Both the position numbers and the translations under genes were made by a program. Shown here one piece after another: positions 5,308-24,630 of a stretch of 32,000 nt of DNA. The stretch comes from Promethearchaeum syntrophicum (GTDB lineage: Archaea; Asgardarchaeota; Lokiarchaeia; Sigyniarchaeales; Promethearchaeaceae). Location of the stretch: assembly GCF_008000775.2 (NCBI RefSeq), contig NZ_CP042905.2:1260001-1292000 (forward strand). The letters run 5' to 3'. The notes beneath the pieces were generated by a model. That model had not been told where the DNA came from. It did no database searches and saw nothing but the letters and a program-made list of their open reading frames with translations. The first letter of the stretch is position 1, and the number at the start of each line of letters is the position of its first letter.

Positions 5308-5480
5308 TTAACACACACCCATATTCTCTAATATCTTGAATTTGAATATTTCTTAAAAATTGAGTTGATATCTAATTATCACCTCGATCATACATAGATC
5401 ACACAGATCATATTTTTTGGTATCAATAAAATATACTTATGTATAAGCATTAATTAAAAAGAATACATATTGCATTAAGG

Positions 5481-5489
5481 ATATAAAAA
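5481..5489 (+). promoter_or_regulatory. TATA-like box (ATATAAAAA) upstream of the metallophosphoesterase gene
   Basis: Centred about 29 nt upstream of ATG 5514 in the 206-nt divergent intergenic region shared with sepF. No clear SD. Confidence 0.3.
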
Positions 5490-5513
5490 CAAAACATATA
5501 ATAACTCAAGAAG

Positions 5514-6293
5514 ATGGCAAATTTCGGTAAAATTTTAATTATTTCTGATGTTCACGCAAAAATTAAAGAGATGGTTGATTTTATAAATTTTTTAATTATT
5601 GAACAAAAGGAAAATATCGATTTTGCGGTTCATTTGGGTGATTTTTGGTCTGGTAGAAATTATGATCCAACAAAAGGAACTCAAATACGAGACGAATGGA
5701 CTGACTTAGCTTATTTCGAAAAATTACCAATCCCAATTTTTCATCTCAAAGGAAATGAAGATCTACCTGTTACCGAATCATATTGGCGAGCTCCTAATAT
5801 ATGGTTAATGGAAGAACAAAAACCATTCCTCATGAATAGCTACAAAGTTTTACCTATTGACTATCATTATCCTGGAGAAGAAAGCGATGAAAATCCTCTT
5901 TATTCTTATGATTCATCAGAACATATAGATTTTATTTTTTCTCATAGACCTGGATTGAATCTTTTAGATGATACTCTGCATTATGAAACTCATAAAAGAT
6001 TGACTCAAACGGGTTCAATTATGGTGAAAAAACATTTCGAATCTATCAAACCTAGTTTATTATTATTTGGTCATTTCCATTTTTCTAACTATATTCAAAC
6101 AGAAAATGGATTGATTGTTTGTATTGATAAATTGATAAGGTTGGGTGGAAAGGATCAGAAAGAATTCAAATATTCATATGCATTAATCGATCCTTTTGAT
6201 AATTCTTTAGATGTATATTGGAAAAATAAATTGTATTTTCATTATTCAATAATGGAACGAAAATTAACACAACATTTCAAAAAAAGAAGATAA
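5514..6293 (+). CDS. Metallophosphoesterase (calcineurin-like phosphoesterase family)
   Basis: Ordered family motifs are present: ILIISDVHA (DxH), VHLGDFW (GD), LKGNEDL (GNE[D/H]), FIFSHRP (H) and LLFGHFHF (GHxH). Confidence 0.75.
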   Translation: MANFGKILIISDVHAKIKEMVDFINFLIIEQKENIDFAVHLGDFWSGRNYDPTKGTQIRDEWTDLAYFEKLPIPIFHLKGNEDLPVTESYWRAPNIWLMEEQKPFLMNSYKVLPIDYHYPGEESDENPLYSYDSSEHIDFIFSHRPGLNLLDDTLHYETHKRLTQTGSIMVKKHFESIKPSLLLFGHFHFSNYIQTENGLIVCIDKLIRLGGKDQKEFKYSYALIDPFDNSLDVYWKNKLYFHYSIMERKLTQHFKKRR

Positions 6294-9303: not shown

Positions 9304-12300
9304 ATTTCTGGTTCATCCTCATCAATTAATTCTTTTATTAATTCTTTTAATTCGGAATTAGGTATTTTAATTGCAGCTTTAAAAAAATCATCTTTTTCTT
9401 CTTCTGTTGCAAGTTGAATTTCTTTAGATTTCTCATGTTGAAGTTTAATCTGCTTTTTAGCTTCATCAAAATCTTTTAAAATAATAACATCACATTTTTT
9501 ACATTTGTGGTTAATATCATCACCATCAAAATAGCTCCACTTTTTGCATACATAACATTGTCGTGCGACGTATAGAGTGTCTGTATTACAATTAGGACAA
9601 TAAATTTCACATTCTTCCGATATAAACAATTTTTTACATTTTTTACAATAAAGTTTAATGGGTTGCTGTTTTTCCCATTCTTTATCCGTTTCCTTAACAA
9701 TTAATCTTGCTTCTTGAAGTAAAGTACTTTCGTGCACTTTTTGTTGCGTAAGTCTTGCAAAAATTGATGGTTCTCTAATATAATCTCCAGTTGCTAATAA
9801 TTTTCGAATCTTCATTTCTCTAATGGAAAGACTTATAGCTGAAACAATTATTGCTGCTCCTAAAGCATAAAGAAAAATCAATAATGGAATTGAGAGTGAT
9901 TTATCCACACTAACCAAAATTTCCTCCATATTACCATTTCCCCAAATATCTTTAGCGCTACAAACGATTTTTATTATATCTCCATTTTTATAATTTGTAG
10001 TATCAAGAAAATAAATAATCGTGTCATTTTCTATTGAATATTCTACTTGTATGTCATTTATCCAAAGATCCACGCGAATCCAATCAATTTCTTCATTATC
10101 TGATATTTTAATTGTAATATTGAATTTTCCTTTTACTACATCATTGTTTCTTAAATTTTGAAATTCGATAACTGGCTTAGTATAATCACGTGAATGGTCA
10201 ATATCTACGGTTAAACTTGAAATTATCCAGCCAGAATTTTTTAATTGGATTCCGACATCATCAGAAATAAAGTTAAATTTGAAAATTACATTTTCTCCAC
10301 GATAATCGGAAATATCTATTGAAATGGATTTTGGATATGTTCCCTCAGTTTCTTGTTCAAATTTCTCTAATAGTTCCCACGAATCTCCTAAGTTGGTAGA
10401 AATAAAAATTTGACCGAAATCTCCTTCTTCTTCTCCATCAATATCAAATCTCAGTCGATGTGTAAAATTTAGATAGATATTTCGAGTTTCATTTAGAAAT
10501 ATAACGGGTGTTATCATACTACTATTTAAATTCATACCATAGCCTTGATAATCTCCAATTCCACAATAAAATTCACCTTCTTCAACAATTCCCAAATTTG
10601 ATACTTGGTGCCACATAAAACTTGAATCACTTGATGGGATCCATAATGTGGGGCTTCTAAGAGTTGCTGATGATTCCAATATTAACATTTCATTAATACT
10701 TAAATTTCTGGTTAGGGGAAATTCCAAGGTTGTCCCGCTTGTGAAATTGAAAAGTGGTTGCCAAGGTGTACTATTGTAGAATGTACCGTCAAAGGTGTTA
10801 AACCTAAAACTTCTATTAACAATATCTAAGATTGGAAGAGTATATGTGAAAATTATCTCTTTAGAATAATCTTCATTAGAATCCTTTTTTGGATTCCATC
10901 TTCCGTATTGATTTATCATCGAATAATTTTTATCACCTATTTCTAAGTAAACATTATTTGGCATATTACCATCCTCGTCGGTATAAGCTACTTTGAATGT
11001 AAAAGGTTCCATTTCGGTATTCGATGAAGAATAATATGGTTGAATTTCTTCAGGATCAGAAAGATGGTGGTATTGAGATAAAACTGGTGCAAAATTATTG
11101 GTGTTATCAGCTTCTTCAAAGGATACATAATCGACCATGATCCCCCCATAATAATCCTCTGGTAAATCATCAAAATCTACCTGTATCCGTATTCTAGTAT
11201 AACTTTGAATGTATTCTGAAAGATTATATTCTACTAAGAACCATTCATTTTGTGTATTTGAAAATGTTTCTAACGTTTCCCATTGATTTGAACGATTTGC
11301 ATTAACTTGGATTTGTACATTATCTCCTTCATTAATTCCAATTCTGATACCTAGTTTTATTATTGGATTAATGGCAATACTTTCATTTAGATAGATATAG
11401 GGGCTAATAAGATTATAAGTTCCAGTTATATTATAGTAAGAATAAAATGGCTTTCCATCTGTTTCAAGTAAATGATGTTGATCCCCTGTCTTTCCAGTAA
11501 TACCACAATACATTGAGTACGAATTTTCATCAATTTCTAAAGTTCGTCTATCTTCCAGTGTGTAGGGGACTTCGATCCAATCCCAACCTGAAAAAACCTC
11601 GATTTCATCATTTTGATATGTAAAATTCATCATTTCTGGAGAAAATTCCCATAAATCTCGTTCATTGGAATTTGAAAAGCTTGAGTTAATACCCGTCGAA
11701 CTCCACTCAACTAAATTTTTAATAGAACTAATAATGGTTGAGTTTACTATTGGATCTATATAGTCAAAGTAAAAGTTTCCTGTCTGGACAGTAAAATTCA
11801 AAGAATATATTCCTGATAGTTTGAATTTATATTCACCTGAATATATGCATCCATCCGTAAAGTTACTATCAAAGAAATCAGGAGTTAATGTAATATTTTC
11901 AGATGTAGCATTTGTATGAAGATTGATAAATGACGCTGGCATATTTTCTGGGTGTGAATAGTTTATACTGAAAGTAAAGATATCTAAAGTATCGTTAAAA
12001 TCGAAATTTGAATTTGGCGAAATAGATGCATTTAATAAATTAGGGGGTTGGGTTATTTTTTGCTTAGAAACGTTAAGAGTTATGTTTCCTTGCCCATTTA
12101 TTGCTTTTGCTACTAAATAAAAACTCTGGGTCTCGTTTAGGTTTGTATAATAAAAATTTTCATCAAAATATCCTATTTGAGGATTTGATGCAACAAGAAT
12201 TGGTTCCCCGTTTTCATCTGGTTCACTAGCATAAAGATATAAATCTGTATCAAATGTAGAGAAGAAAGTTTCATTAAAAGTCATATTAAAGAGATACATT

Positions 12301-14255
12301 TCATTTTTTTCAAGCGTAATATTTGTTGCATAAACATGTTCTCCAATAGAATTCTCTGTAGATGCGATTAAAGGGATTTCTATTGAACTATTGATTTCAA
12401 ACGTATTATTTAACAAATCAAAAACAGCTTTTGGATTAATCCTTCCATATCCTTCATGAATGTCAGAGCCTCCTCTATTTAATATTGGGGAATTCAAACT
12501 CTCATCATATGGTGTATTGGGATTATCTTCACGTTGCATGTTAGTTTCTGTGGCAGTTAATAGAAGCAATGATTTTATAAATAAGGCGTCTTTACCCGAA
12601 GATTTATCTAAATTATCCCACCCACCTAATGCTTCTACTACTAAGTTGTATACTCCTGCTACGATAGCAACTGAAACTGAAGTGCCAGTAATGCAAGTTA
12701 GATCATTATCTATTAACTCTGAATCTCCATAAAAAGGATCATAATCATTAGTATCTGCGGTTATAACCATATTATTTTCTGTTAGTAAGCTACCTCCAGG
12801 AGCTAGAAGATCTGGGGCAATTGTTTGGTCATCTTCTAAAAGGTTACCTTGGTTTGAATAATATGTGAGTTGATCTTGGTTGTTTACAGCTCCCATAATT
12901 ATTGCTTTTTTGTTCATGGCTATTTTGTTAATTTCTGTGCTTATTCCCATATTTCCTGCTGCAATAATGACCATTGTGCCATTATTTATTATTTTGTCAA
13001 TCAATGATGAAATATTTTTTGCCAGATTATTGTCCATATTGAAATTTGCAAGACTTAACACTGTAGCTACTACATGAAGCTTGGATCCATTATTTATAAT
13101 CCATTCTAAAGCACTAATCAAATTTGATGAATATCCCAATCCTGTTTCATTCAATATTTTCAAAGATGCTATTTTTGTATTAGGAGCGATACCTGTAAAA
13201 TTAGCAAATGGTCGAGATTCATTTTTTGGTGAAAAGGTTATGTTTAAAAACATATTAAATTCTGGATTTACTCCAAATGGTATATTATAGGTAAAAAATA
13301 CATCGTATTTGCCTGTTTTATTTATAATTTCAGTAGAATTCCAACTTAAATCTAGTATTTGATCATCACTACTATTAATTAATTCTCCATCACGATATAG
13401 TTCAGAATGAAAATTATCAAATCGATATGTCTCATTTATTTTACCTTTTATATCAATCCAGTCTAAAGCATCAGAATCCAAATCAAAAGAAGCAAGCTTA
13501 AATTTATACCATCCTGGTGTTATATGATGTGGATAAAACAATTCTCCATGAGAATAATTACCACCAACCGTTATATAGTATGTAGATCCCGTATGGGTTG
13601 GTTCTAATGAAGTGTCTCCGCCACCCAAAGAAATTGATGTGATTGCTGTACCGTGTCCATTAATATCATCATATTCTTGTGATCCATTGATATAATTCTC
13701 CCATGCAACTATATTACTTTGATTAATCAGTGAATGAGAATCATCAATTCCACTATCTAAGAAAGCTATCGTTGAATTTAGATCTCCTAAATATCCATAT
13801 CCTGAACTATCTATAACCGCTGGATATGTATTGATCTGCTCATGAATTGAATTCATTTGAGCTTCTATAACATTATCTTGGAAAGTCTTAGGGTTATATT
13901 GATCAATAAATGCACCTAAATTCTCCTCTGAATTATTTATAATTCCACTGAATCCATTTAGATATTCCCAAGGACCACTAGTTAAAACTCCTCCTAAAGT
14001 AGAGCTGAAAAAACTAAATAATGTCGCATTATCAATTAAATTTATGGAAGAATTAAAAAGAAATATATATCGATGTGATTGGTTATCATAAGAAGGGATA
14101 TATTGATTGTATGGTGTTTCAATGCTTTGATCTAAATAATTACCATTTTTTGTTAATCCTTGTTGAAAATTGAAATATTCTGGTAAGTAAACAAATTGGA
14201 GAATAAAAATTCCTAAAAAGAAAAGGGCTAAGGATTTCCGTGTATGTTTCATCAT
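9300..14255 (-). CDS. Giant (1651 aa) cell-surface subtilisin-like serine protease (S8) with I9-like propeptide, multiple beta-sandwich modules, C-terminal TM anchor and cytoplasmic zinc-ribbon tail
   Basis: N-terminal signal-like helix (SLALFFLGIFILQFVYL). Catalytic blocks AFLDSGID, NGHGTAI, IAAGNMG and GTSVSVAIVAG. Sequon-rich ectodomain with a single C-terminal TM. The start overlaps the upstream stop (ATGA at 14252-14255). Confidence 0.85.
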   Translation of the reverse strand: MMKHTRKSLALFFLGIFILQFVYLPEYFNFQQGLTKNGNYLDQSIETPYNQYIPSYDNQSHRYIFLFNSSINLIDNATLFSFFSSTLGGVLTSGPWEYLNGFSGIINNSEENLGAFIDQYNPKTFQDNVIEAQMNSIHEQINTYPAVIDSSGYGYLGDLNSTIAFLDSGIDDSHSLINQSNIVAWENYINGSQEYDDINGHGTAITSISLGGGDTSLEPTHTGSTYYITVGGNYSHGELFYPHHITPGWYKFKLASFDLDSDALDWIDIKGKINETYRFDNFHSELYRDGELINSSDDQILDLSWNSTEIINKTGKYDVFFTYNIPFGVNPEFNMFLNITFSPKNESRPFANFTGIAPNTKIASLKILNETGLGYSSNLISALEWIINNGSKLHVVATVLSLANFNMDNNLAKNISSLIDKIINNGTMVIIAAGNMGISTEINKIAMNKKAIIMGAVNNQDQLTYYSNQGNLLEDDQTIAPDLLAPGGSLLTENNMVITADTNDYDPFYGDSELIDNDLTCITGTSVSVAIVAGVYNLVVEALGGWDNLDKSSGKDALFIKSLLLLTATETNMQREDNPNTPYDESLNSPILNRGGSDIHEGYGRINPKAVFDLLNNTFEINSSIEIPLIASTENSIGEHVYATNITLEKNEMYLFNMTFNETFFSTFDTDLYLYASEPDENGEPILVASNPQIGYFDENFYYTNLNETQSFYLVAKAINGQGNITLNVSKQKITQPPNLLNASISPNSNFDFNDTLDIFTFSINYSHPENMPASFINLHTNATSENITLTPDFFDSNFTDGCIYSGEYKFKLSGIYSLNFTVQTGNFYFDYIDPIVNSTIISSIKNLVEWSSTGINSSFSNSNERDLWEFSPEMMNFTYQNDEIEVFSGWDWIEVPYTLEDRRTLEIDENSYSMYCGITGKTGDQHHLLETDGKPFYSYYNITGTYNLISPYIYLNESIAINPIIKLGIRIGINEGDNVQIQVNANRSNQWETLETFSNTQNEWFLVEYNLSEYIQSYTRIRIQVDFDDLPEDYYGGIMVDYVSFEEADNTNNFAPVLSQYHHLSDPEEIQPYYSSSNTEMEPFTFKVAYTDEDGNMPNNVYLEIGDKNYSMINQYGRWNPKKDSNEDYSKEIIFTYTLPILDIVNRSFRFNTFDGTFYNSTPWQPLFNFTSGTTLEFPLTRNLSINEMLILESSATLRSPTLWIPSSDSSFMWHQVSNLGIVEEGEFYCGIGDYQGYGMNLNSSMITPVIFLNETRNIYLNFTHRLRFDIDGEEEGDFGQIFISTNLGDSWELLEKFEQETEGTYPKSISIDISDYRGENVIFKFNFISDDVGIQLKNSGWIISSLTVDIDHSRDYTKPVIEFQNLRNNDVVKGKFNITIKISDNEEIDWIRVDLWINDIQVEYSIENDTIIYFLDTTNYKNGDIIKIVCSAKDIWGNGNMEEILVSVDKSLSIPLLIFLYALGAAIIVSAISLSIREMKIRKLLATGDYIREPSIFARLTQQKVHESTLLQEARLIVKETDKEWEKQQPIKLYCKKCKKLFISEECEIYCPNCNTDTLYVARQCYVCKKWSYFDGDDINHKCKKCDVIILKDFDEAKKQIKLQHEKSKEIQLATEEEKDDFFKAAIKIPNSELKELIKELIDEDEPEI
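9492..9647 (-). other. Predicted cytoplasmic double zinc-ribbon (four CxxC pairs) in the tail of the S8 protein
   Basis: Residues ~1537-1588: CKKCKKLFISEECEIYCPNCNTDTLYVARQCYVCKKWSYFDGDDINHKCKKC. Lies C-terminal to the TM helix and a basic REMKIRK stretch. Confidence 0.7.
9822..9893 (-). other. C-terminal transmembrane anchor of the S8 protein
   Basis: SIPLLIFLYALGAAIIVSAISLSI followed by REMKIRK (positive-inside). Confidence 0.7.
12456..13808 (-). other. Peptidase S8 catalytic domain (D167/H201/N435/S526) with a large insertion after the His block
   Basis: Codons checked on the DNA: D167 = 13755-13757 (gat), H201 = 13653-13655 (cac), S526 = 12678-12680 (tca). Confidence 0.75.
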
Positions 14256-17200
14256 AAATCGACCTCCTTTTTCAATTTCTCAACTTGTTCTTCTAAAAAT
14301 TCATTCAAATTCTTTTTATGCCATGAAATTTCCTTGAGTGTTGTTCCAAACATCAAAGCATCTCGCCGATCAAATTCTGCATCTTCTCTAGAATACTTAG
14401 TTTTGTATTTTTTAGTAACAATTATCAGTGCAATTCCTGCAATCAGCGGGATATATATCCTCGAAGTAAGTACCAAATATTTTTCTCTGATTTTAAAATC
14501 AATAGGGTCATTTCTAATTGTATATTTATATTTGAAAAAATAATCTATCTCAGCAGGTGCCATTTTATAAATTCCTTTAGTATTTAAAGTTTTAAGGGTA
14601 TAATTGAATGAAAATTGATCACCTGGGGCAAGAAAATTTACATCTTTGATTAATGTTCCATTCGCTAGTATAAAACCGCTGGCATCATACGAAATATCAA
14701 AAATAGTGAAATTTCCAAGTTCTATATTTCCATTATTTTCAATGATAATATTTACATTAAATTCGGTTCTAGTATTTGTATCAATAGTTTCAAAGATTTT
14801 TGTAATTGTTAAATTAAAATACCCTAAAACAAGGGGTTCTTTACAAGTTTGAAATATTAATGAGCAATTATCTAAAGTGGATTTGATTGTTAATTGAGGA
14901 ATCATATACCCCATAAAATTAGTTTTCGTAAAATTAATTTCGAAAATATTAGAGGATAATGGCTGTAATTCATCAATCCATATAAATTCGCTATTATTGT
15001 GAGGGGATATTCCTTCAGATGATTGATGTATAGGGATAGATATATCAAATATCGAATTTTTTCCTAAATTTGTTATTTTTGCATTAACTGAGAAATCCTC
15101 TCCCACTTTAGGGGCAGCAATAGCAAAATCCGATATGAATTCAATCAATACATTATGTTTATAAGGTGTATCTTTCTCAGTTTGATAATAAATTGGAGCT
15201 GATAAATAAATTTGGTTACTTTCTGCAATATAATATTTTTGAGAGTAGTTAGAATGCGAATTATCTTTCCATTCAATGGTAGCCATAGGAAGAAGTCTAC
15301 TATTTGGGGCATAAAATTGAAAAGAGATATTTTTCACAACTTCTCCAGGTAATATTTCATAAATTTCATAAAACAATATCCCATTTTTAAGAGTAAAATT
15401 TCCCCCCTTTGCTGTAAATCTGGTTTTATTTTCATAATCTTGGTATGAGCTAACATTTAATAAGTTGTAAAGAATTCCGGGTTGTTCCATTTCAATCGTA
15501 ATATTATTTGCTTTTTGATTCCCTAAATTAGTGACTGATAAATTATAATGGAGTATTTCTCCACAATAACTCTGAGAATGATCAATTACTGCAATTCCTG
15601 ATAAATGAGCTCCGTCATCAATTCCTATCGATATACTATTCGAACTACTTGAATATTGGTTATTTCCGATCTCGGTTGAATATGTAACGCGAGCTGGTGC
15701 CATTATTATACGATCGTTCATAATATCTTGGAAATTTAACTGTATGAAATCAAAATCAATTTCAAAATTATTTTCGTTTTCACTGGTAATCCTAAAAATG
15801 ATAGAGAAGTTATTTGTAAAATCGTAGTAATGAGATAAATTATAATCTATGCTAGAAATTGTTAAATTTAAGGAATCTGGTGTTTGAGGTATAGAGTTTC
15901 CTAAAATAGTTATAAAACCATCATCATCTTCTCCACTAGTATCTATTGTATAATCAAAAATTTCGATATTATATGATGTGTCATTATCCCATTTCGTAAA
16001 ATTCATCTGTAAATTAAAAGAATCTAAAGTGTTATTTTCCAAATCAATATGACTAGAATTTTGAAATGTAAGATATTGTTGAATTTGATGTGAATTTCCC
16101 ATATCTTCTGATTCAATATTCCAAGTTTTGGAATCGTTAATAAAATATGTACCAGAGATATCAGAATTACTTAACACGTTTCCAATTGATACAACGGGTG
16201 AAAAATTCCCAAGATCTGCAACAGTTAGGTTATAGAATTTATTATATCTCTCGGTTACATTATAATCATTATTTAATTGAATAGAGAAATTTTTTCCGGG
16301 ATCTATTTTCCAATTATTGGGGTTATATATGCTTTGAGAAGAATTAAAAATTTGTGGATTATCTGCAATAGTACCATAAGCTTCTGCATTGTTGATTAGT
16401 AATTGAGTAAAATCTGGACTATATGGTATTAAAAACTCTAAGCTTTCCACTGTTAAATCAAATTGTGGATAAAAAAAATCTATTGTTCCTGTATCATTTG
16501 AATCAATATTGAAAAACCGCGGGTTATCATCATGGAATATTTCATCAATATCATATCCTAGAGTAGTTGTAATTTCAACAATTCTTTCAGAATCATATCC
16601 CATTATTTCAAAAATATCCATGTTTAGGTCTAAAAGCGTTATTTCTTGAGTAGGATCATTAGATATGCCCAAAGCTGTTAGATTTATTTCTTGTCCCCAT
16701 ATTGTTTGTTCTCCTCTATTTTCTACTATAATTTCAACATCAGGATTATTATTGTCTTCTAAAATGCGTGAGGCATTGCCGTTATTGATTTTTTTTGTAA
16801 TAAATAGTGATGGCTCATCTTCAATCAATTGATACTCACATGCTAAATTTTTCAGGGGTTTTATATAAGCACTTGGGATATTCATTCCGATTTCTGATGG
16901 ACCTAAAATTGCTAAGAGATTAATAAAATCAGATTCATTTCTTAAATTTTGAGGAATAGTTACTAATGTCGATAACGCCTCATTTGATTCCCAAGCAATC
17001 TTAAAGGAATAATCTTTTATGCTGGAAAGATCAAAGCTTTGGTCGACTAGAAATAACATACTTTCAATTCTATTAGTATAATTTTCATCAATTTCAAAGT
17101 GATTGGGGGTACATTCTAATACTTCCGCAGAAAAAAATCCTAAATTTATTGTACTTAAAGAAATTCCATCAAATGAATTATATATCTTCTCAGAAACATG

Positions 17201-18226
17201 CAATTCTGGTTTTGAATAATTAAGTGCTTTAAATAAATCAAAATTATATTTCTGGTCACCAATTTCTGTAATTCCTTCTTCATTACCTTCATAGTGAACC
17301 GAATAAATCAAAACATTTTCTAAGTCTTCCAAATAGGTTAATTCTTCATTTGAATTTTCAGATTGATTCGAGTTATCAGTTCCTAAAAAATCATTTAAGA
17401 AATTTGATTCAGTACCACTCATAGATTCTGGATTTAATAGATTTAATCCTCCCAAACTTGATAAATCAAAATCTAATGGAATTTTTATATCATTATATTT
17501 ATCCAGATACGTATTCAAATAATTAAAATTCTTCATAAATATCAAAGAACTACTTAGATGATGGTTTGTTGAATAATAATCCGAAGATAGCATATCGGGA
17601 TTAAATGCGCCCCAATATCCGTCAAGTGGTAAATTTGAAATAGTGGTGTCAAAATAAGCTTCCCATTTTGGTGTAAATCCAAAAAATGGATAAAAATAAC
17701 CTAAATTGGGATCTTCTCTCTCATTAGAAAGAATAAAATCCATTTCAAATATATTTTTAAAGATATTAATTGCCCGTTCTTTTCTCATTTGGATTTGATT
17801 ATAATTTGATATATTGTTATAGAATAAGAATCCAGTCATTGCCTGATAAGTTGTATTTATTATAGTTAGATTGTTACTAGTATATATAGATGGATCCATT
17901 TCTGCTTTAATTCCGTTTGAAACTTGGATCATAAATGAACTTCCAAAAAAAGCAGGATCTGAAAGATCTAACTCTTCAAAAATATTCGTATCATTAGTAA
18001 TGTACGATTGCTGAATTAAACTATGATTACCCGCAACTTGAACTAATATTTGTTCTCCATACAATTCATTTCCAGATATATCTGAAGATTTAGGAAGGGG
18101 ATTAGAAAAACCATAGACAGTTTCTTCCAAAATATCCTCAGTTCTTCCTATATTTAAAGGGACGATATTTTGAAATAATATTAATAAAATAAAAACCTTG
18201 AGAAGGATTTTCTTTTTTATTTTCAT
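14252..18226 (-). CDS. Giant (1324 aa) secreted, C-terminally membrane-anchored surface protein with CARDB/DUF11-like beta-sandwich repeats
   Basis: Signal peptide MKIKKKILLKVFILLILFQNIVPLNIG. Four occurrences of the 'xxNxGxxxxxNxxI' strand pattern typical of CARDB/DUF11 modules (VENRGEQTIWGQEINL; VTNLGNQKANNITIEM; ITNLGKNSIFDISIPI; IENNGNIELGNFTIFD). C-terminal TM (IYIPLIAGIALIIVT, about 14414-14476) plus a ~50-aa charged tail. Very sequon-rich. Confidence 0.75.
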   Translation of the reverse strand: MKIKKKILLKVFILLILFQNIVPLNIGRTEDILEETVYGFSNPLPKSSDISGNELYGEQILVQVAGNHSLIQQSYITNDTNIFEELDLSDPAFFGSSFMIQVSNGIKAEMDPSIYTSNNLTIINTTYQAMTGFLFYNNISNYNQIQMRKERAINIFKNIFEMDFILSNEREDPNLGYFYPFFGFTPKWEAYFDTTISNLPLDGYWGAFNPDMLSSDYYSTNHHLSSSLIFMKNFNYLNTYLDKYNDIKIPLDFDLSSLGGLNLLNPESMSGTESNFLNDFLGTDNSNQSENSNEELTYLEDLENVLIYSVHYEGNEEGITEIGDQKYNFDLFKALNYSKPELHVSEKIYNSFDGISLSTINLGFFSAEVLECTPNHFEIDENYTNRIESMLFLVDQSFDLSSIKDYSFKIAWESNEALSTLVTIPQNLRNESDFINLLAILGPSEIGMNIPSAYIKPLKNLACEYQLIEDEPSLFITKKINNGNASRILEDNNNPDVEIIVENRGEQTIWGQEINLTALGISNDPTQEITLLDLNMDIFEIMGYDSERIVEITTTLGYDIDEIFHDDNPRFFNIDSNDTGTIDFFYPQFDLTVESLEFLIPYSPDFTQLLINNAEAYGTIADNPQIFNSSQSIYNPNNWKIDPGKNFSIQLNNDYNVTERYNKFYNLTVADLGNFSPVVSIGNVLSNSDISGTYFINDSKTWNIESEDMGNSHQIQQYLTFQNSSHIDLENNTLDSFNLQMNFTKWDNDTSYNIEIFDYTIDTSGEDDDGFITILGNSIPQTPDSLNLTISSIDYNLSHYYDFTNNFSIIFRITSENENNFEIDFDFIQLNFQDIMNDRIIMAPARVTYSTEIGNNQYSSSSNSISIGIDDGAHLSGIAVIDHSQSYCGEILHYNLSVTNLGNQKANNITIEMEQPGILYNLLNVSSYQDYENKTRFTAKGGNFTLKNGILFYEIYEILPGEVVKNISFQFYAPNSRLLPMATIEWKDNSHSNYSQKYYIAESNQIYLSAPIYYQTEKDTPYKHNVLIEFISDFAIAAPKVGEDFSVNAKITNLGKNSIFDISIPIHQSSEGISPHNNSEFIWIDELQPLSSNIFEINFTKTNFMGYMIPQLTIKSTLDNCSLIFQTCKEPLVLGYFNLTITKIFETIDTNTRTEFNVNIIIENNGNIELGNFTIFDISYDASGFILANGTLIKDVNFLAPGDQFSFNYTLKTLNTKGIYKMAPAEIDYFFKYKYTIRNDPIDFKIREKYLVLTSRIYIPLIAGIALIIVTKKYKTKYSREDAEFDRRDALMFGTTLKEISWHKKNLNEFLEEQVEKLKKEVDL

Positions 18227-18257
18227 TGATTTTTAACTTCCAATCTTTTAACTTAGT

Positions 18258-21134
18258 TTATAGTGTATCTCGAAATATTTTTATAATATTTTTTGTTCTT
18301 ATTTTTCTCATTAACCATTTCATACCAAGAATTAGCGCTATTAAGGAAATTGCATAAATTATTGCAATGATATCCCAAGGAATAGCAATCATTCTTGGAG
18401 TTTGTGTAAAAATAGTAAGGTTACCTGATAATCCCACAGCAGTAACAAAACCGATAAAACCTCCTGAACTTGCAGAAGCCAGCATTAGAATCAAGTTTTC
18501 TAGAATAAACATCTTATCTACTTCATGAGGATGTAGACCTAGTACTCTTATTATTCCAATTTCACGAGATCTCTCTAATATTGATGAATAGGATGAAGAA
18601 ATTAAACCAAATAATGCAATGAAGACAGATCCTATCAAAATTAATAAAAATAAGTATTTAACAGTAAGAAACGCTTTTTCTGCTTCCATAATATCCTCAT
18701 TTGTAACCCTTACCCTAAGGTTATATTCCCCACCGAGTGTATGCTTAATATCTTCACCAACTAACGTGTGATTATAATTTTCACTAACCTTAACAAAAAT
18801 CTGATCAATAAACGCATCTTCATCACCGGGAATGTTCATGCATTTGAGATAATTAACATTTGACATTAGAACTCCTCCATTTGACATTCCGCCTAAACCT
18901 ATTCCTGCTTCTCTAAATCGAAATTTTAGACCGGGCATAGATTTTGCAACACCTACAATGTTCACAATATAAGGTTCTTCTTCTGTTCCTCTTGTAAATG
19001 TTAAACGTGCGGAATCATCCAGATGAATTTTAAGCTCACTCGCTAATGACGCTGAAATTATTATATTTATTTCTAAATTATTGAAAACTTCTTCAAAGGC
19101 ATTATCCTTATTTCCTTCAGATAATTCGATATATTTTGGATCCCAAACAGTATCCTTATAATTTTCATCAACTCCAAATAAGTAAACTCCTGCTGAATTG
19201 TAATTTATATAATCTCCTAATTCTACATTGAACTCTTTCTGTTCTTCTGAATATATATTCTCCAAGTCACTCGTACTCGCTAATAATGTTGAAGTTCGTT
19301 CAATTCCCTCAACTTTTAGTAGTTCTCTTTGTAATTCTGAAGTTGGAGCACTAATATCATAATTTCTAGGTCTTACAACAATATCGGATCCTTCATCATA
19401 TTGAATTAACCCCCCCACTTGTTCGAATTGAATTTCCAACATAGATGAAACATAAATAATAAAAGAAAACGCCAAAACGAACATTACAATTGTTGATAAA
19501 TTTCTTCTTTGATGCCTATATACCGATACTTTGACAATATTCATTAATTTTCGACTAAATGGCTCAAAAACTCTAATTAAAAGTCTAATAAATAACGGCA
19601 TTAATCCAATTGCCATTAAGCTAATTCCTATTAAGAAAAATAACAAAGTTCCGATCAAGATGTTTACTAAAATTGAGAATTCTAAAGAAATTAGTACTTT
19701 TGGAATAATAAAATAAAGAAATCCTCCATTTAGCGCCAAAACAATGCCTAAAAATATCAATTTTACATTGGCAGCACCTTCTTTTTCTAATTTATAAATT
19801 TCCTCAGTGTGCCTATAAGGATTAATCGATTCTACTAAACTGATTCTAGATACTTTTATTGCAGGTAAAATTGAAACTATCATTGAAACTCCAATTCCAA
19901 TAGCATATGAGATTAAAATTGTTGTTGGTTGAATTACAAAAGATATAACTGAAGGAACATTATTTTGTACGAGTTTTATATTAAGAAATGGGACAAGAAA
20001 TTTTGAAGTGAAAATTAAAGAACTAATTATTCCTAAAGTTGTTCCTATTGTACAAATTATTGAAGCTTGAATGAGTATAAGTTGAACATTGTACTTTTTT
20101 CGAGCTCCCAATACTCTATTTATGCCAAATTCCCTTATTTTTTCTTCAACTGAAGTTGAAAGTATCCCATTAATTAAAATTGCTGAAATTAATGTTGAGA
20201 TAAATCCTACCATCATAAAAACAATATTCATTGATAAAGTGAGATATTCTGATATAAAAAGTAAATTAAGTTTAGGATATTTCAGTTCCCATGGATTAAA
20301 TCCCAGTACCTTTAGAATTTTAGCTCCAATATTAACTATGTGATCTTCTGAACCAGTAATGTCTCTAACATCATAAATTTTATCTGAATCTTCAATTAGA
20401 AATATTAATTTATTTGATCTTTCTCCCCAATCTTTAAGAGGGTTTTCTGTATTATCATTACTATTTGCAAGATTTCCCCACCAATCATAATCTATCACAA
20501 TATCTTTTTCTTCTCCTAGAGGAAATTTATATATTTGATCAAATGAACTTGTCACGGTAAATCTTACTGTGTTATTTAGAAACCAGAGCCATAAATCCAA
20601 TTGATCGCCAGGGTTTAATTCATATCTTTGTGCAAATTCAAGAGAAATTAAACAATGGTTTTCAGGTATTCCTTGAGAAACATCAAAATTTTCTTCGAGA
20701 TTCGTAAATTGACCAAAATTTATAGATTCTTCTGCTTTAATATCTAAAACACTTAACTGAAACCATCCAAAATTTTCTTCTGGATTAGAAAGCGAACCTT
20801 GAGTAGCTACCCAAAAACTAGATCTTGGAATATAATGTGCTATTTCTGAGGATACGTTCTCATCGTTTTGTAATGCTTCAATTATTGGTGAATATTTAAA
20901 TTCCATTGAATAATTTTCGGGTTCTCCAATATAATGTCTCGCATTCAATACAATATCTTGATCTCCTGAATCTGCAGTTAAAAAATCAATATAACTGTTT
21001 GAAATCGAATCTGTTAGAAATGAAACTGTTGTAAGAAGGAAAAGTGAGACGAATACGCCTAATATGCCTAAAATATTCCGGGTTTTTTTACGGAAAAGAT
21101 CTTTAAATGCATATCTCCATAGAAATCCATTCAA
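18258..21134 (-). CDS. ABC transporter permease, FtsX/MacB-like, tandem double-FtsX architecture (permease 1)
   Basis: 958 aa. FtsX modules SVEEKIREFGINRVLGARKKY and ILERSREIGIIRVLGLHPHEV. TTG start at 21132-21134, 5 nt after the ATPase stop, with GAGG about 11 nt upstream. Paralogue of 6307-9303. Confidence 0.85.
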   Translation of the reverse strand: MNGFLWRYAFKDLFRKKTRNILGILGVFVSLFLLTTVSFLTDSISNSYIDFLTADSGDQDIVLNARHYIGEPENYSMEFKYSPIIEALQNDENVSSEIAHYIPRSSFWVATQGSLSNPEENFGWFQLSVLDIKAEESINFGQFTNLEENFDVSQGIPENHCLISLEFAQRYELNPGDQLDLWLWFLNNTVRFTVTSSFDQIYKFPLGEEKDIVIDYDWWGNLANSNDNTENPLKDWGERSNKLIFLIEDSDKIYDVRDITGSEDHIVNIGAKILKVLGFNPWELKYPKLNLLFISEYLTLSMNIVFMMVGFISTLISAILINGILSTSVEEKIREFGINRVLGARKKYNVQLILIQASIICTIGTTLGIISSLIFTSKFLVPFLNIKLVQNNVPSVISFVIQPTTILISYAIGIGVSMIVSILPAIKVSRISLVESINPYRHTEEIYKLEKEGAANVKLIFLGIVLALNGGFLYFIIPKVLISLEFSILVNILIGTLLFFLIGISLMAIGLMPLFIRLLIRVFEPFSRKLMNIVKVSVYRHQRRNLSTIVMFVLAFSFIIYVSSMLEIQFEQVGGLIQYDEGSDIVVRPRNYDISAPTSELQRELLKVEGIERTSTLLASTSDLENIYSEEQKEFNVELGDYINYNSAGVYLFGVDENYKDTVWDPKYIELSEGNKDNAFEEVFNNLEINIIISASLASELKIHLDDSARLTFTRGTEEEPYIVNIVGVAKSMPGLKFRFREAGIGLGGMSNGGVLMSNVNYLKCMNIPGDEDAFIDQIFVKVSENYNHTLVGEDIKHTLGGEYNLRVRVTNEDIMEAEKAFLTVKYLFLLILIGSVFIALFGLISSSYSSILERSREIGIIRVLGLHPHEVDKMFILENLILMLASASSGGFIGFVTAVGLSGNLTIFTQTPRMIAIPWDIIAIIYAISLIALILGMKWLMRKIRTKNIIKIFRDTL

Positions 21135-21139
21135 TTCAT

Positions 21140-22168
21140 TTAAGCCTCAAACACATTTTTCGTTTTTTCAAGAATTAATACTCCACTCTTAATTTTACCA
21201 GGAATATCTTCTTTATCTATAAGTTCTGATACAAGATCATCAAAATACATTGGGAGATTGGTTAAAATCTCTTGATCAATGGAATCTTTAATTTTAGATA
21301 TTCGAATTTCGAAAATATCTTGGGATTTCTCAGATCTAATGAATTCTAATATTTTTCTTTCACATCTTTCTTTATATTCTGATTGAAGTGATAATCTCGC
21401 CTCTCTCATTTCATCAGTTTCTTTCAAGCCACTTACTTCCAATCCCTTTACAATTTTTCCGTCTCTAATATGTATAATTCTTGTGCAATATTCTGAAACC
21501 GCCGCATCGTGGGTAGCTGAGATAAAAGTTGCGCCTTTCCTATTTAAATCACGTAGTAAATTAAGAATTTCAATACCAGTTTTTGAATCTAAATCTCCAG
21601 TTGGTTCATCAAGTAAAACAATACTAGGATCATTAGCGAAAGCTCGAGCAATTGCCACTCTTTGTTGTTCTCCACCACTTAACTCTGAAGGAGTGTGATG
21701 TGAGCGTTCATCGAGCTTGACCAATTTTAGTAATTCCATAGCTTTTCTTTTTCGAGCGCGTCTGGAAAGAGTTCCTTGAAAATGTAAGGGAATCATAACA
21801 TTTTCTAAAGCAGTTAAAAGTGGAAGAAGATTATAAAATTGAAATACATAACCTATATTATCTCTTCGAAGATCTGCCAATTGATTTTCATCTAAAAGAG
21901 ACATGTCTTTCCCGTCCAAGTAAATCTTGCCTCTGGTGGGATAATCTAAGCCTCCGATCAAGTTTAGCAGAGTAGTTTTACCACAACCGCTGGGACCCAT
22001 CAATCCTAAAAATTCTCCTGGTTTTATTTTGACATCCATGCCACGTAAGGCGGGAACGGCTGTAGTTCCGAGAAGATAAGTTTTATGAACCCCTTCGACT
22101 AGAATTTTGTACTTTGTTTCTATGATACCGATGTTTTGATCAATTTTTTTCGGTCGATGAAGCACCAT
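21140..22168 (-). CDS. ABC transporter ATP-binding protein (MacB/LolD-type) with ~100-aa C-terminal extension
   Basis: Walker A GPSGCGKTT, Q-loop YVFQ, signature LSGGEQQRVAIARA, Walker B VLLDEPTGDLD and H-loop ATHD. The cassette ends near IHIRDGKIV (res ~240), and 102 further residues follow. Confidence 0.95.
   Translation of the reverse strand: MVLHRPKKIDQNIGIIETKYKILVEGVHKTYLLGTTAVPALRGMDVKIKPGEFLGLMGPSGCGKTTLLNLIGGLDYPTRGKIYLDGKDMSLLDENQLADLRRDNIGYVFQFYNLLPLLTALENVMIPLHFQGTLSRRARKRKAMELLKLVKLDERSHHTPSELSGGEQQRVAIARAFANDPSIVLLDEPTGDLDSKTGIEILNLLRDLNRKGATFISATHDAAVSEYCTRIIHIRDGKIVKGLEVSGLKETDEMREARLSLQSEYKERCERKILEFIRSEKSQDIFEIRISKIKDSIDQEILTNLPMYFDDLVSELIDKEDIPGKIKSGVLILEKTKNVFEA
21143..21448 (-). 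other. Extra C-terminal domain of the ABC ATPase (helical linker plus possible winged-helix-like module)
   Basis: Residues 241-342: ...EMREARLSLQSEYKERCERKILEFIRSEKSQDIFEIRISKIKDSIDQEILTNLPMYFDDLVSELIDKEDIPGKIKSGVLILEK. The helix-helix-helix-hairpin pattern is judged by eye only. Confidence 0.35.
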
Positions 22169-22190
22169 GATAAGTCCAATTAAGATTTTT

Positions 22191-22201
22191 AAAATTATAA
22201 A
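22191..22201 (-). promoter_or_regulatory. TATA-like box (TTTATAATTTT on the minus strand) for the ABC/surface-protein operon
   Basis: Centred about 27 nt upstream of the ATPase ATG (22166-22168) with no SD between them, which fits a leaderless operon transcript. Confidence 0.35.
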
Positions 22202-22289
22202 TTCAATTATTCTAAATAATTAGAAAGAAGAGAATTCAGAGTTTTTTTTTATATTGAATGCTCTTTTTACAATTTTAATTCCTAAATCA

Positions 22290-23759
22290 TTATTCTGTTA
22301 GATATTCAGTTATTTCAGACTCCATTTCCATGAATTTTGAACCATCTTCTGAAATAATTGTTTCTAAAAGTTTAACCTTAAGATTTCTGAATTGTAATTG
22401 CTTTTCTAATTTGAATTTTTTCTCATCTACCTTATTAAGAAAAGCATACATGTTTTTAGCTTTTTCAACATCAAAAATTTTGGCGTTCCCTTTTGTTTCT
22501 TTATATTTAATAATAATTTTTTTCAATATGCCTTCCGCTTCTGGAATCCAATCAATAAATGGAGAAACATTGCCTGTTTTGTGGAAAGCAGGGAGGAAAT
22601 CTTCATATTTGGATAAGAACAGATTAAATAAATTATCAAATTCTTCTTTAAGATCACCTGCATCCATTTTTGGAGATGTAAATAAGGTTAGAGTTAGATT
22701 TCGTTTAGAAATTGAAGAAATTTTTAAATTAGCGCCTTGAACTCGAAAACTAGAAAGATTTTGAACATTTATCTCTTGAGAAAACTTTTGAAGTGCATTT
22801 AAAAACATTCCAATTAGTTCTATATCGAATTGATCATTATCTGCTGCGTTTAATGCTTTATATAATGAATCTGGTTCTGTTTCGATTGAAATAAGTGTTT
22901 TTCCATGCATATCACTAATTATTAACCCATACAGATAACTGGCTATTGAATCTTCATCCGTTATTAAAGCAGTTTGGGTTTTTGAATCAACTTCAAAGGT
23001 TTTTAAGATTTTTTTATAGAAGATTTCTCCTTTTTCTAGTAAATAAACAAGTGTCTCTTCTTCCACTTTTTGTTTGTTTAGTAATTCTGCTTCTGCATAC
23101 GGATTAATTAAAGATTCTAAGGTGGACTTATCAATGTCTAAATGTTTTTCGAGTTTCTTCAAGCTCATTACTTTCTTCTCTAGCAAGAAGTGAAATAGTT
23201 GGGTGTTAAGTTTCACTAAATCAAAATCAATTTTACTTCCCCATTCAAAACCCGATTTTTTAAAGATTTCAATGAAGCATTCGATTGTTGAATGTAAATA
23301 TTCGAGCTTTATGGAAGTATAGAAAATTTCAACATTTTTATCTTTTAAGGCTTTTTTAATTTTTTCAATCTGTTTAGAATCAATAAGATCAATTTTATGT
23401 ATTAAAAAAAAGAGGAGACTTTTGGGGGCTTGTTGTTTTTCAACTTTAAGAGCAAGATCAATTTTGTCTGAAAGTATTTTTGGTGCAAAACGGGCATCTA
23501 AAACATTTAAAATTAAATCACTCTCATTGAAAATATCAACATTTTCTTCAAACCATCGATCATTTTCTTGTCCGGCCAGATCAAACACGCCTATATTATT
23601 TAATAATAGATTATAAGAATAATTTTCTACACCGAAAGTTGCTTCTAAAGGATTTTCTAACAATTTTATCACCGATTCTCCTTCAAAAATCCATTTCCGC
23701 AGAGTTGATTTTCCTACTTCTTGAGGACCCACTAAAACTACTTTTTTTGACAATTTCAT
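22290..23759 (-). CDS. Rag/Gtr-like small GTPase fused to a winged-helix-like segment, a roadblock/LC7-like domain and a helical C-terminal region
   Basis: G1 GPQEVGKS (res 11-18), switch-I T41, G3 DLAGQ (60-64), G4 HKID (121-124) and G5-like YTSIK. The N-terminal 170 aa are collinear with human RagA as I recall it (KKVLLMGKSGSGKTSM / KKVVLVGPQEVGKSTL; LWDCGGQ / VFDLAGQ; FCLVHKMDLV / FFLIHKIDLI; FRTSIWDETLY / FYTSIKLEYLH). Confidence 0.75.
   Translation of the reverse strand: MKLSKKVVLVGPQEVGKSTLRKWIFEGESVIKLLENPLEATFGVENYSYNLLLNNIGVFDLAGQENDRWFEENVDIFNESDLILNVLDARFAPKILSDKIDLALKVEKQQAPKSLLFFLIHKIDLIDSKQIEKIKKALKDKNVEIFYTSIKLEYLHSTIECFIEIFKKSGFEWGSKIDFDLVKLNTQLFHFLLEKKVMSLKKLEKHLDIDKSTLESLINPYAEAELLNKQKVEEETLVYLLEKGEIFYKKILKTFEVDSKTQTALITDEDSIASYLYGLIISDMHGKTLISIETEPDSLYKALNAADNDQFDIELIGMFLNALQKFSQEINVQNLSSFRVQGANLKISSISKRNLTLTLFTSPKMDAGDLKEEFDNLFNLFLSKYEDFLPAFHKTGNVSPFIDWIPEAEGILKKIIIKYKETKGNAKIFDVEKAKNMYAFLNKVDEKKFKLEKQLQFRNLKVKLLETIISEDGSKFMEMESEITEYLTE
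22665..22946 (-). other. Roadblock/LC7-like domain of the Rag-like protein
   Basis: Residues ~272-365: IASYLYGLIISDMHGKTLISIETEP...FDIELIGMFLNALQKFSQEI...FRVQGANLKISSISKRNLTLTLFTS. This is an alpha-beta-beta-alpha-beta-beta pattern typical of roadblock/MglB-type domains. Assignment is by eye. Confidence 0.5.
23250..23759 (-). other. GTPase (G) domain of the Rag-like protein
   Basis: Residues 1-170 contain G1-G5 as listed for the parent CDS. Confidence 0.75.
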
Positions 23760-24102: not shown

Positions 24103-24630
24103 TTAGTTAATTGATCGATTGGATATCTCATCAAAATTATCAACGTCAAAATTAACTGGTCCGTGAATATCATTTAATAAAGTACCCCAAGCTTTAAGAC
24201 AATGATTTATGTAGGCACCTTCAGATAGTTTTTCGATTATATCTTCTGTTATATCATCAAGTTCAATTTCTAATTTCTTAATACTATCAGGAATGATTAA
24301 AAGTAAAGCATATCTTTTTATGCCTCCACGAGCTAAAGGATCTTTAACTTTTACTTTTTTTATCCTAATTCGATAAGGTATTCTTTCCTCTGACTTTGTT
24401 GAAGCGAATAATGATAAATTATCAGATCTTGATGAAATTGAATCTTGTAGAATATTATATTGGGTAACACGATCAAAGAGATCGAAATTAAAATTGATAG
24501 CTAAAAACATTGGGCCTAACTTAGAGTGATAGTGTGATACGGCTAATCCTATCTCATTTTCTTGAACACTATAACTGGAAGTTCTGATTATCAAATTTAA
24601 CCCTTCTCTTTTTGTCTCGATCTTGAACAA
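24103..24630 (-). CDS. Hypothetical protein; possible longin/uDENN-like fold
   Basis: 175-aa ORF with TTG start (24628-24630) preceded by GAAGGA and a TATA-like box about 30 nt upstream. No family motif that I can name. The predicted strand/helix order, judged by eye, resembles a longin domain. The start codon is uncertain. Confidence 0.5.
   Translation of the reverse strand: MFKIETKREGLNLIIRTSSYSVQENEIGLAVSHYHSKLGPMFLAINFNFDLFDRVTQYNILQDSISSRSDNLSLFASTKSEERIPYRIRIKKVKVKDPLARGGIKRYALLLIIPDSIKKLEIELDDITEDIIEKLSEGAYINHCLKAWGTLLNDIHGPVNFDVDNFDEISNRSIN

Follow-up and report, generated by a model that had tools for sequence, protein, structure and literature searches.

A Rag-like GTPase with a longin/roadblock platform in Promethearchaeum syntrophicum and its conserved place beside an ABC/double-FtsX/surface-protein operon

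Eukaryotic Rag GTPases are obligate heterodimers joined through their C-terminal domains; they dock on Ragulator or EGO, and are regulated by GTPase-activating proteins (GAPs), either GATOR1 or longin proteins of the FLCN type. The roadblock platforms of MglB and Ragulator likewise dimerise and dock small GTPases. Asgard genomes encode dozens of eukaryote-like small GTPases, and we know of none with an established target. Here we describe one of them, encoded by a 489-aa open reading frame (ORF) in a 32,000-nucleotide stretch of the P. syntrophicum MK-D1 genome (positions 1,260,001-1,292,000 of its single 4.32-Mb contig). This whole stretch is referred to as the window, and coordinates are positions within it unless another sequence is named. 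Our overall reading, to which we give a probability of roughly 0.7, is that the gene encodes a cytoplasmic switch, an Asgard Rag-like GTPase fused to a longin/roadblock platform and published as WP_162306644.1, together with a possible partnership suggested by the operon next to it.

Both the protein and its domain layout have been published before. In a modelling study of the complete set of 74 small GTPases of MK-D1, Tran et al. (2024, Commun Biol 7:273; PMC10933270) reported that the Rag-like proteins form the second largest class and that 26 proteins are fused to roadblock or longin domains. Their supplementary alignment holds a row "WP_162306644.1-GXLX MKLSKKVVLVGPQEVGKSTLRKW...", with later blocks VFDLAGQE... 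and EIFYTSI-KLEYLHSTIE, which matches the present ORF in the N-terminal, switch II and G5 blocks, allowing for noise from optical character recognition. The target is therefore WP_162306644.1, and both its listed accession and its domain layout place it in the class catalogued as GXLX (GTPase, unknown, longin, unknown). Two MK-D1 paralogues, at contig positions 2,079,575-2,081,077 and 2,738,817-2,740,214, match the rows WP_147663498.1-GXLX and WP_162306755.1-GXLX. Tran et al. grouped the GXLX proteins with Rag/Arf-like GTPases having longin domains, left both X domains unassigned and gave no gene context. What is new here is the identity of the winged helix, the clarification of roadblock versus longin, the distribution of the family, and two clade-specific gene contexts.

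Among described systems, the eukaryotic Rag/Gtr GTPases (RagA-D and Gtr1/Gtr2; PF04670) give the best sequence and fold matches to the target, and share with it the HKxD and TSI motifs and a roadblock-superfold platform C-terminal to the G domain. The target differs from them in a winged-helix insert, a platform with longin element order, an extra helical bundle of ~95 aa, and the lack of an adjacent partner gene. Closer to home, LokiRagO (8yl2), a homotetrameric RagA-like GTPase of Lokiarchaeota, and the plain G-roadblock ("GR") GTPases also combine an Asgard Rag-like G domain with a roadblock-fold platform, and the target matches 8yl2 with a Foldseek E of 8.5e-10. However, the 8yl2 chains (284-288 residues) consist of G domain and roadblock alone, whereas the target carries two more modules and belongs to a separate paralogue group. 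The platform itself superposes on LAMTOR2/3 of Ragulator, on MglB of the MglA/MglB system, and on the MK-D1 Roadblock protein with target-normalised TM scores of 0.5-0.7, but unlike MglB and the Ragulator subunits it is fused in cis to the GTPase and gives no Pfam Robl_LC7 signal. Finally, the operon downstream of the gene resembles Type VII ATP-binding cassette (ABC) machines (MacB/FtsEX/YbbAP-type) that have cytoplasmic regulators, in that it encodes an ATPase like MacB, permeases with FtsX domains and, next to them, extracytoplasmic proteins. To our knowledge no Type VII ABC transporter is known to be controlled by a small GTPase, and the link drawn here between the two is one of gene order.

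A RagA/Gtr1-type G domain in a conserved four-module protein

The gene lies in a region with a G+C content of ~28-32%, and its features are as follows.

22290-23759, minus strand: GXLX GTPase ORF, ATG start, 489 aa
23250-23759, minus strand: RagA/Gtr1-like G domain, residues 1-170 (Pfam, PDB profile and invariant motifs)
23706-23729, minus strand: G1 motif GPQEVGKS, residue 11
23565-23582, minus strand: G3 motif DLAGQE, residue 60
23388-23399, minus strand: G4 motif HKID, residue 121
23310-23318, minus strand: G5 motif TSI, residue 148
23001-23225, minus strand: winged-helix domain, residues 179-253, the first X of GXLX (model topology and weak profile matches)
22947-23000, minus strand: disordered linker, residues 254-271 (pLDDT <50 at residues 255-268)
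22575-22946, minus strand: roadblock/longin-superfold domain, residues 272-395 (separate model and Foldseek)
22293-22574, minus strand: C-terminal helical bundle, residues 396-489, the second X of GXLX (helices only in the model)

The G domain is of the RagA/Gtr1 type, with a complete set of G1 to G5 motifs; HKxD and TSI, both typical of Rags, are among them, as is the glutamine of switch II. An initial annotation of this DNA, made from its letters alone, had quoted the motifs GPQEVGKS, DLAGQE, HKID and TSI, all of which are present in the ORF, and had proposed a Rag/Gtr-type G domain. The profile searches bear this out: in a Pfam scan, residues 6-195 match Gtr1_RagA with 44.2 bits (cut-off 22), well ahead of MMR_HSR1 (27 bits), Arf (24.1 bits) and Ras (18.4 bits), so that the placement in Arf, Rab or MglA families named as the outcome that would speak against the proposal did not appear. 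Human RagA is the top PDB match of the target by phmmer, and a profile built from 41 full-length homologues scores 63-69 bits against RagA/Gtr1, 29-36 bits against RagC/D/Gtr2, and at most 26 bits against the best Rab or Arl. Across the same 41 sequences T41, G63, Q64, H121, K122, D124, T148 and S149 are invariant, and in the supplementary alignment of Tran et al. the HKxD and TSI motifs of the GXLX family line up with those of RRAGA and RRAGC. A score above the Gtr1_RagA cut-off is not by itself proof of Rag affinity, because in six-frame genome searches the same model also matches 5 of 14 control genomes (E. coli, Thermus and others) and exceeds the cut-off in two of them. The single cysteine of the target, at position 161, excludes Rab-type prenylation.

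A full-length AlphaFold2 model built on the family alignment (mean predicted local distance difference test, pLDDT, of 81) shows four modules: a G domain (residues 1-168), a winged helix, an alpha/beta domain of roadblock/longin fold at residues 276-395, and helices from there through residue 488. In a Foldseek search with the whole model, RagA, RagC, Gtr1 and Gtr2 chains and LokiRagO are among the top matches, with 300-425 aligned columns, and therefore both halves of the Rag proteins are matched. What the target does not have is the canonical eukaryotic arrangement, in which a roadblock domain follows directly on the G domain with nothing beyond it. The four-part architecture described in the initial annotation is real and is kept in all 48 full-length homologues that we recovered in a word-indexed search (25-88% identity, nearly all from Promethearchaeota), but it is not new, as it had been catalogued as GXLX. 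Together with the Gtr1_RagA score of 44.2 bits, its retention in these homologues puts the observation far beyond chance. In species genomes we located 71 loci, and these too belong almost without exception to Promethearchaeota. The four-module layout is shared throughout a small family found essentially in Lokiarchaeia alone. Family members at three loci (L057, L058 and L061) stand on contigs labelled "Candidatus Bathyarchaeota" and "Patescibacteria group bacterium", and these labels are probably binning errors.

The winged-helix-like insert was also correctly recognised in the initial annotation. In the model, residues 179-253 have the topology H-E-H-H-E-E-H (pLDDT 82-91), and weak profile matches connect them to MarR-family PDB structures (E 7e-4) and to Sta1/Lrs14 regulators (E 2.4e-4). 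The fold of the MarR and Lrs14 proteins is accordingly present in the model, but their basic recognition helix and wing are not: the domain has a net charge of ~0 in the target and a family mean of +0.5, the recognition helix and the wing of the target each carry -2, and no conserved basic position was found in the family alignment of 41 sequences. As modelled, the first X domain is a MarR-like winged helix without a basic DNA-binding surface, which is an addition to the description by Tran et al.

The third module had been described initially as roadblock-like. We modelled residues 268-489 (222 aa) alone, on an alignment of 42 sub-fragments (pLDDT 85.6, predicted TM score 0.67), and found that the best Foldseek matches of this model are LAMTOR2/3 (E 1.8e-5), the MK-D1 Roadblock crystal structures 7yh1, 9jq8 and 9jue, MglB, and dynein LC7, with the longins Sec22b (TM 0.42/0.69), AP2 sigma and COPI zeta close behind. 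A roadblock-type fold is thus predicted for the segment, and its absence, the other outcome that would have spoken against the initial proposal, did not occur. The order of its elements, beta-beta-alpha-beta-beta-beta-alpha-alpha (in 222-aa numbering, strands at 9-16, 21-26, 70-74, 79-85 and 88-94, and helices at 31-62, 100-128 and 138-159), is of the longin type and lacks the N-terminal helix of a true roadblock domain. No Pfam Robl_LC7 or longin model matches residues 268-489 in any of the 42 members, and a faint MAPKK1_Int match appears in just 2 of the 42. The domain therefore belongs to the fold class of Roadblock/LC7 (PF03259) and lacks both its profile match and its alpha-beta-beta-alpha-beta-beta-beta-alpha order, whereas it agrees with longins in element order as well as in fold. 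"Roadblock-like" is correct at the level of the fold, and "longin", the label L of Tran et al., is more exact, because of the longin element order, the missing N-terminal helix and the absence of a Robl_LC7 match.

The C-terminal helical region noted initially is present in the model as the bundle of residues 396-489, which forms one rigid unit with the longin domain in the 222-aa model and contains a lysine (K461) that is invariant in the family. A HMMER scan with the longin-plus-helical module retrieved 159 representatives among 1.84 billion; the module keeps its place in the full-length matches, mostly of ~440-550 aa, and the shorter ones look for the most part like fragments. Relatives of the module with another architecture were not detected among these 1.84 billion representatives.

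Gene contexts of the two GXLX clades

Directly downstream of the GTPase gene, on the same strand, is an operon whose components we assigned by Pfam matches.

6307-21134, minus strand: operon beyond the ATPase (Pfam matches, order kept in related genomes)
21140-22168, minus strand: ABC ATPase, 342 aa, first gene of the operon (Pfam ABC_tran, 1.5e-37)
18258-21134, minus strand: double-FtsX permease (Pfam)
14252-18226, minus strand: TRAP_beta/CARDB-like giant protein, 1324 aa (Pfam)
9300-14255, minus strand: S8 subtilase giant protein, 1651 aa (Pfam)
6307-9303, minus strand: second double-FtsX permease (Pfam)

That the GTPase gene lies immediately upstream of a surface-protein ABC operon had been singled out in the initial annotation, and this position is a genuinely conserved feature. 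Probing the 71 loci with the proteins of the window, we found the ABC cluster 3' of the GTPase gene in 10/10 loci that belong to the target clade (Promethearchaeaceae) and have enough DNA, the window included, always in the order GTPase, ABC ATPase, FtsX permease and TRAP-beta-like protein, followed by the S8 protease where the DNA reaches that far. The remaining probed loci are all without the cluster. The same order is seen in L. ossiferum, whose GTPase is 50% identical to the target, and in a metagenome-assembled genome (MAG) whose GTPase is 29% identical. The gene on the 5' side of the GTPase varies between these ABC-linked genomes: the window has a 175-aa ORF and a malic enzyme there, L. 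ossiferum a CoA ligase together with a small ORF, Harpocratesius likewise a CoA ligase, and the 29%-identity MAG a HicA-type pair.

The 175-aa ORF (24103-24630, minus strand) lies 343 nt upstream of the GTPase gene and has a faint Pfam Folliculin match (E 0.024) over residues 94-120, the sole hint in these data of regulation by Ragulator, GATOR1 or FLCN-type proteins. A 76% identical copy lies ~2 kb upstream of the GTPase gene in one Promethearchaeum MAG, and a 48% identical copy lies 9.6 kb from it in one other genome. Since it stands near the GTPase gene outside the window in just the one Promethearchaeum MAG, it was ruled out as a conserved partner.

The sister clade of GXLX paralogues has a different context. 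None of its 33 loci has the ABC cluster beside the GTPase gene. Instead, in 27/33 of these loci a second Rag-like GTPase gene lies directly 5' of the GXLX gene in the same orientation, at a spacing of -25 to +39 nt, as in the pair of locus L033 (partner at 8687-9994 and GXLX at 10004-11509 of that locus). The partner measures 430-454 aa in 26 of the 27 pairs; a longin-like segment at its N-terminus is followed by a G domain and a C-terminal domain, and within MK-D1 it is most closely related to the published LG and LGR proteins, encoded at contig positions 2,907,902-2,908,909 and 2,083,179-2,084,471, respectively. The pairs (loci L024-L063) often stand among two-component genes encoding histidine kinases and response regulators. 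An adjacent partner GTPase is present in 0/8 of the ABC-linked loci.

In a maximum-likelihood tree, the 34 rows of the non-ABC clade (support 98/99) are set apart from the ABC-linked rows, which form two subclades and remain compatible with a single origin. The fixed neighbour thus differs from one GXLX clade to the other, and this is our main argument that gene context reflects function in the family.

The search of the MK-D1 genome for Rag-like paralogues that the initial annotation had recommended gave ~32 ORFs above the Gtr1_RagA cut-off; two paralogues of the target are of the GXLX type. One GXLX paralogue lies in a GTPase-rich island at contig positions ~2,066,000-2,085,400, where at least 6 ORFs that score with Gtr1_RagA fall within 20 kb; this paralogue (2,079,575) and an LGR protein (2,083,179) are ~2 kb apart on the same strand.

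The ABC ATPase of the operon has a C-terminal extension of ~100 aa (21140-21460 in the window, minus strand), which carries the conserved motifs GLKET and NLPxHFDD and has no Pfam match. It occurs in Promethearchaeaceae and in the sister family (referred to as f2), whereas two distant Asgard families have ATPases of 238-254 aa that lack it. Homology of the extension to the winged helix of the GTPase was considered and rejected (hhalign probability 11%, not significant).

What the adjacency may mean

We tentatively propose that the Promethearchaeaceae paralogue works with the machine of ABC ATPase, double-FtsX permeases and giant surface proteins encoded directly downstream, a proposal that comes from gene order and that we would hold at clearly less than even odds. 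What speaks for it is that the order holds in 10/10 loci, down to 29% GTPase identity, while the 5' neighbours change, and that the cluster is missing from all 33 sister-clade loci.

Several observations weigh against it. The operon occurs more widely than the linked GTPase: its FtsX permease was found in 7/7 sampled Promethearchaeaceae genomes, in 57/68 genomes of f2 and in some distant Asgard families, and the operon stands without an adjacent GTPase gene in 9/9 inspected f2 loci and in two distant Asgard families. The extension of the ATPase, being present in f2 as well, does not track the GTPase. Further, the gap between the GTPase and ABC genes ranges from 90 to 409 nt across loci (121 nt in the window, 22169-22289) and carries a conserved TATA-like block.

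22182-22205, minus strand: conserved intergenic block TGAATTTATAATTTTAAAAATCTT, kept in the window and in three Promethearchaeum MAG loci, with one A/T difference in one of them (L016)
22195-22201, minus strand: TATA-like core TTTATAA, 33 nt before the ABC start codon

Across these four Promethearchaeum loci the core lies 29-33 nt ahead of the ABC start codon, where the TATA box of a near-leaderless archaeal transcript is expected, and therefore the block is, judged by its sequence and placement, probably the promoter of the downstream operon. The operon is then able to exist, and probably to be transcribed, without the GTPase, and the coupling is for this reason a family-level association and not a universal property of the machine. 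A scan for bacterial-type promoters gave nothing above shuffled sequences, and no terminator-like hairpin was found. A second conserved block, TTTAAAA(T/C)TGT, lies just past the stop codon of the GTPase gene.

The slot before the ATPase in f2 is occupied in 8/9 inspected loci by a conserved same-strand ORF of 240-246 aa, and in the ninth by a different gene. We considered this ORF as a degenerate relative of the GTPase or of its longin domain; the copy that was scanned (5444-6181 of locus L089) proved to be RNase III-like (E 5e-16), and the candidate was dropped as unrelated. The ATPase at f2 loci of this type also has an N-terminal extension, giving 392 aa in total.

The most serious alternative is that the adjacency is frozen synteny, and that the GTPase does its work in another setting, such as membrane or cytoskeleton signalling, together with a partner encoded in trans, as do most of the ~70 small GTPases of the genome on this view. 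We regard this as a substantial possibility, somewhat short of an even chance. It would account for operons that do without the GTPase in f2 and in the distant families, for the probable separate promoter, and for the restriction of the adjacency to one taxonomic family; moreover, Tran et al. and Liu et al. state that Asgard small GTPases and eukaryotic signature proteins lie mostly outside conserved neighbourhoods. However, a frozen arrangement does not easily explain why the adjacency has outlasted both the divergence of the GTPase and the exchange of the upstream neighbours in 10/10 loci, nor why the partner of the sister paralogue clade, though a different one, is just as fixed, a pattern that points to context reflecting function.

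Another possibility is that the protein is a GTP-gated transcription factor, in which a longin-mediated dimer would bring its pair of winged helices to an operator within the 121-nt gap and so control the operon. The likeness of the winged helix to the MarR and Sta1/Lrs14 regulators, weak as the profile matches are, and the position of the gene directly upstream of the TATA-like block of the operon would fit such a role. Nevertheless, a role in DNA binding is improbable, because the winged helix is near neutral and has no conserved basic position, and because the palindromes in the gap that might serve as operators are at chance level, with arms as long in 8-70% of shuffled sequences. The paralogues in other contexts, moreover, retain the winged helix.

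Less probable still is that the protein stands to eukaryotic RagA/Gtr1 as a direct orthologue or ancestor and acts as a heterodimer with a RagC-like partner, since the preference of the family profile for RagA/Gtr1 over RagC/D/Gtr2 (by roughly at least 30 bits) and the pairing of the sister-clade genes with a second Rag-like gene are set against the non-Rag winged-helix insert, longin-order platform and added bundle, the missing adjacent partner in the target clade, and the rank of the target in its own genome, where it is 19th of the 39 Gtr1_RagA matches listed and plain G-roadblock proteins reach 111 bits. An Arf-family GTPase, as the source names of several homologues have it ("ADP-ribosylation factor-like protein"), is an equally remote prospect: the Pfam Arf score lies just above its cut-off of 22.3 bits and Tran et al. 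find the class structurally close to Arf as well, but Gtr1_RagA scores 20 bits higher, the family profile prefers RagA/Gtr1 over Arl by ~40 bits, the G4 and G5 motifs are those of Rags, and an Arf-type N-terminal amphipathic helix is excluded because the N-terminus (MKLSKK) leaves five residues ahead of strand 1, which starts at residue 5, and has no Gly2.

For the Rag-like switch with a longin/roadblock platform that we favour, a mechanism can be sketched by analogy. The longin/roadblock domain would serve as a platform for dimerisation and partner docking, as do the C-terminal roadblock domains of Rags, Ragulator and MglB, and, following the same precedents, the nucleotide state of the G domain may change what the platform and the helices bind. 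GTP hydrolysis would probably need an external GAP, because an arginine finger is lacking; GXLX-type proteins are without the switch I arginine (Tran et al., 2024). The near-neutral winged helix may act as a protein-contact or spacer module and not as a reader of DNA. In Promethearchaeaceae, one possibility is that the target gates the cytoplasmic ABC ATPase according to its nucleotide state. In this strongest form, in which the ABC-linked GXLX clade would supply the Promethearchaeaceae ABC/double-FtsX/giant-surface-protein machine with its cytoplasmic GTP switch, the proposal is speculative and we consider it rather unlikely to hold in full.

If it were true, the target would be the first of the Asgard Rag-like GTPases for which an effector can be identified, and signalling of the Rag/longin type would have been wired to the cell surface before eukaryotes. 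The gene contexts are in themselves a useful addition to the published catalogue, as they name two concrete candidate partnerships for GXLX proteins, and both arrangements are present in cultured species (MK-D1 and L. ossiferum).

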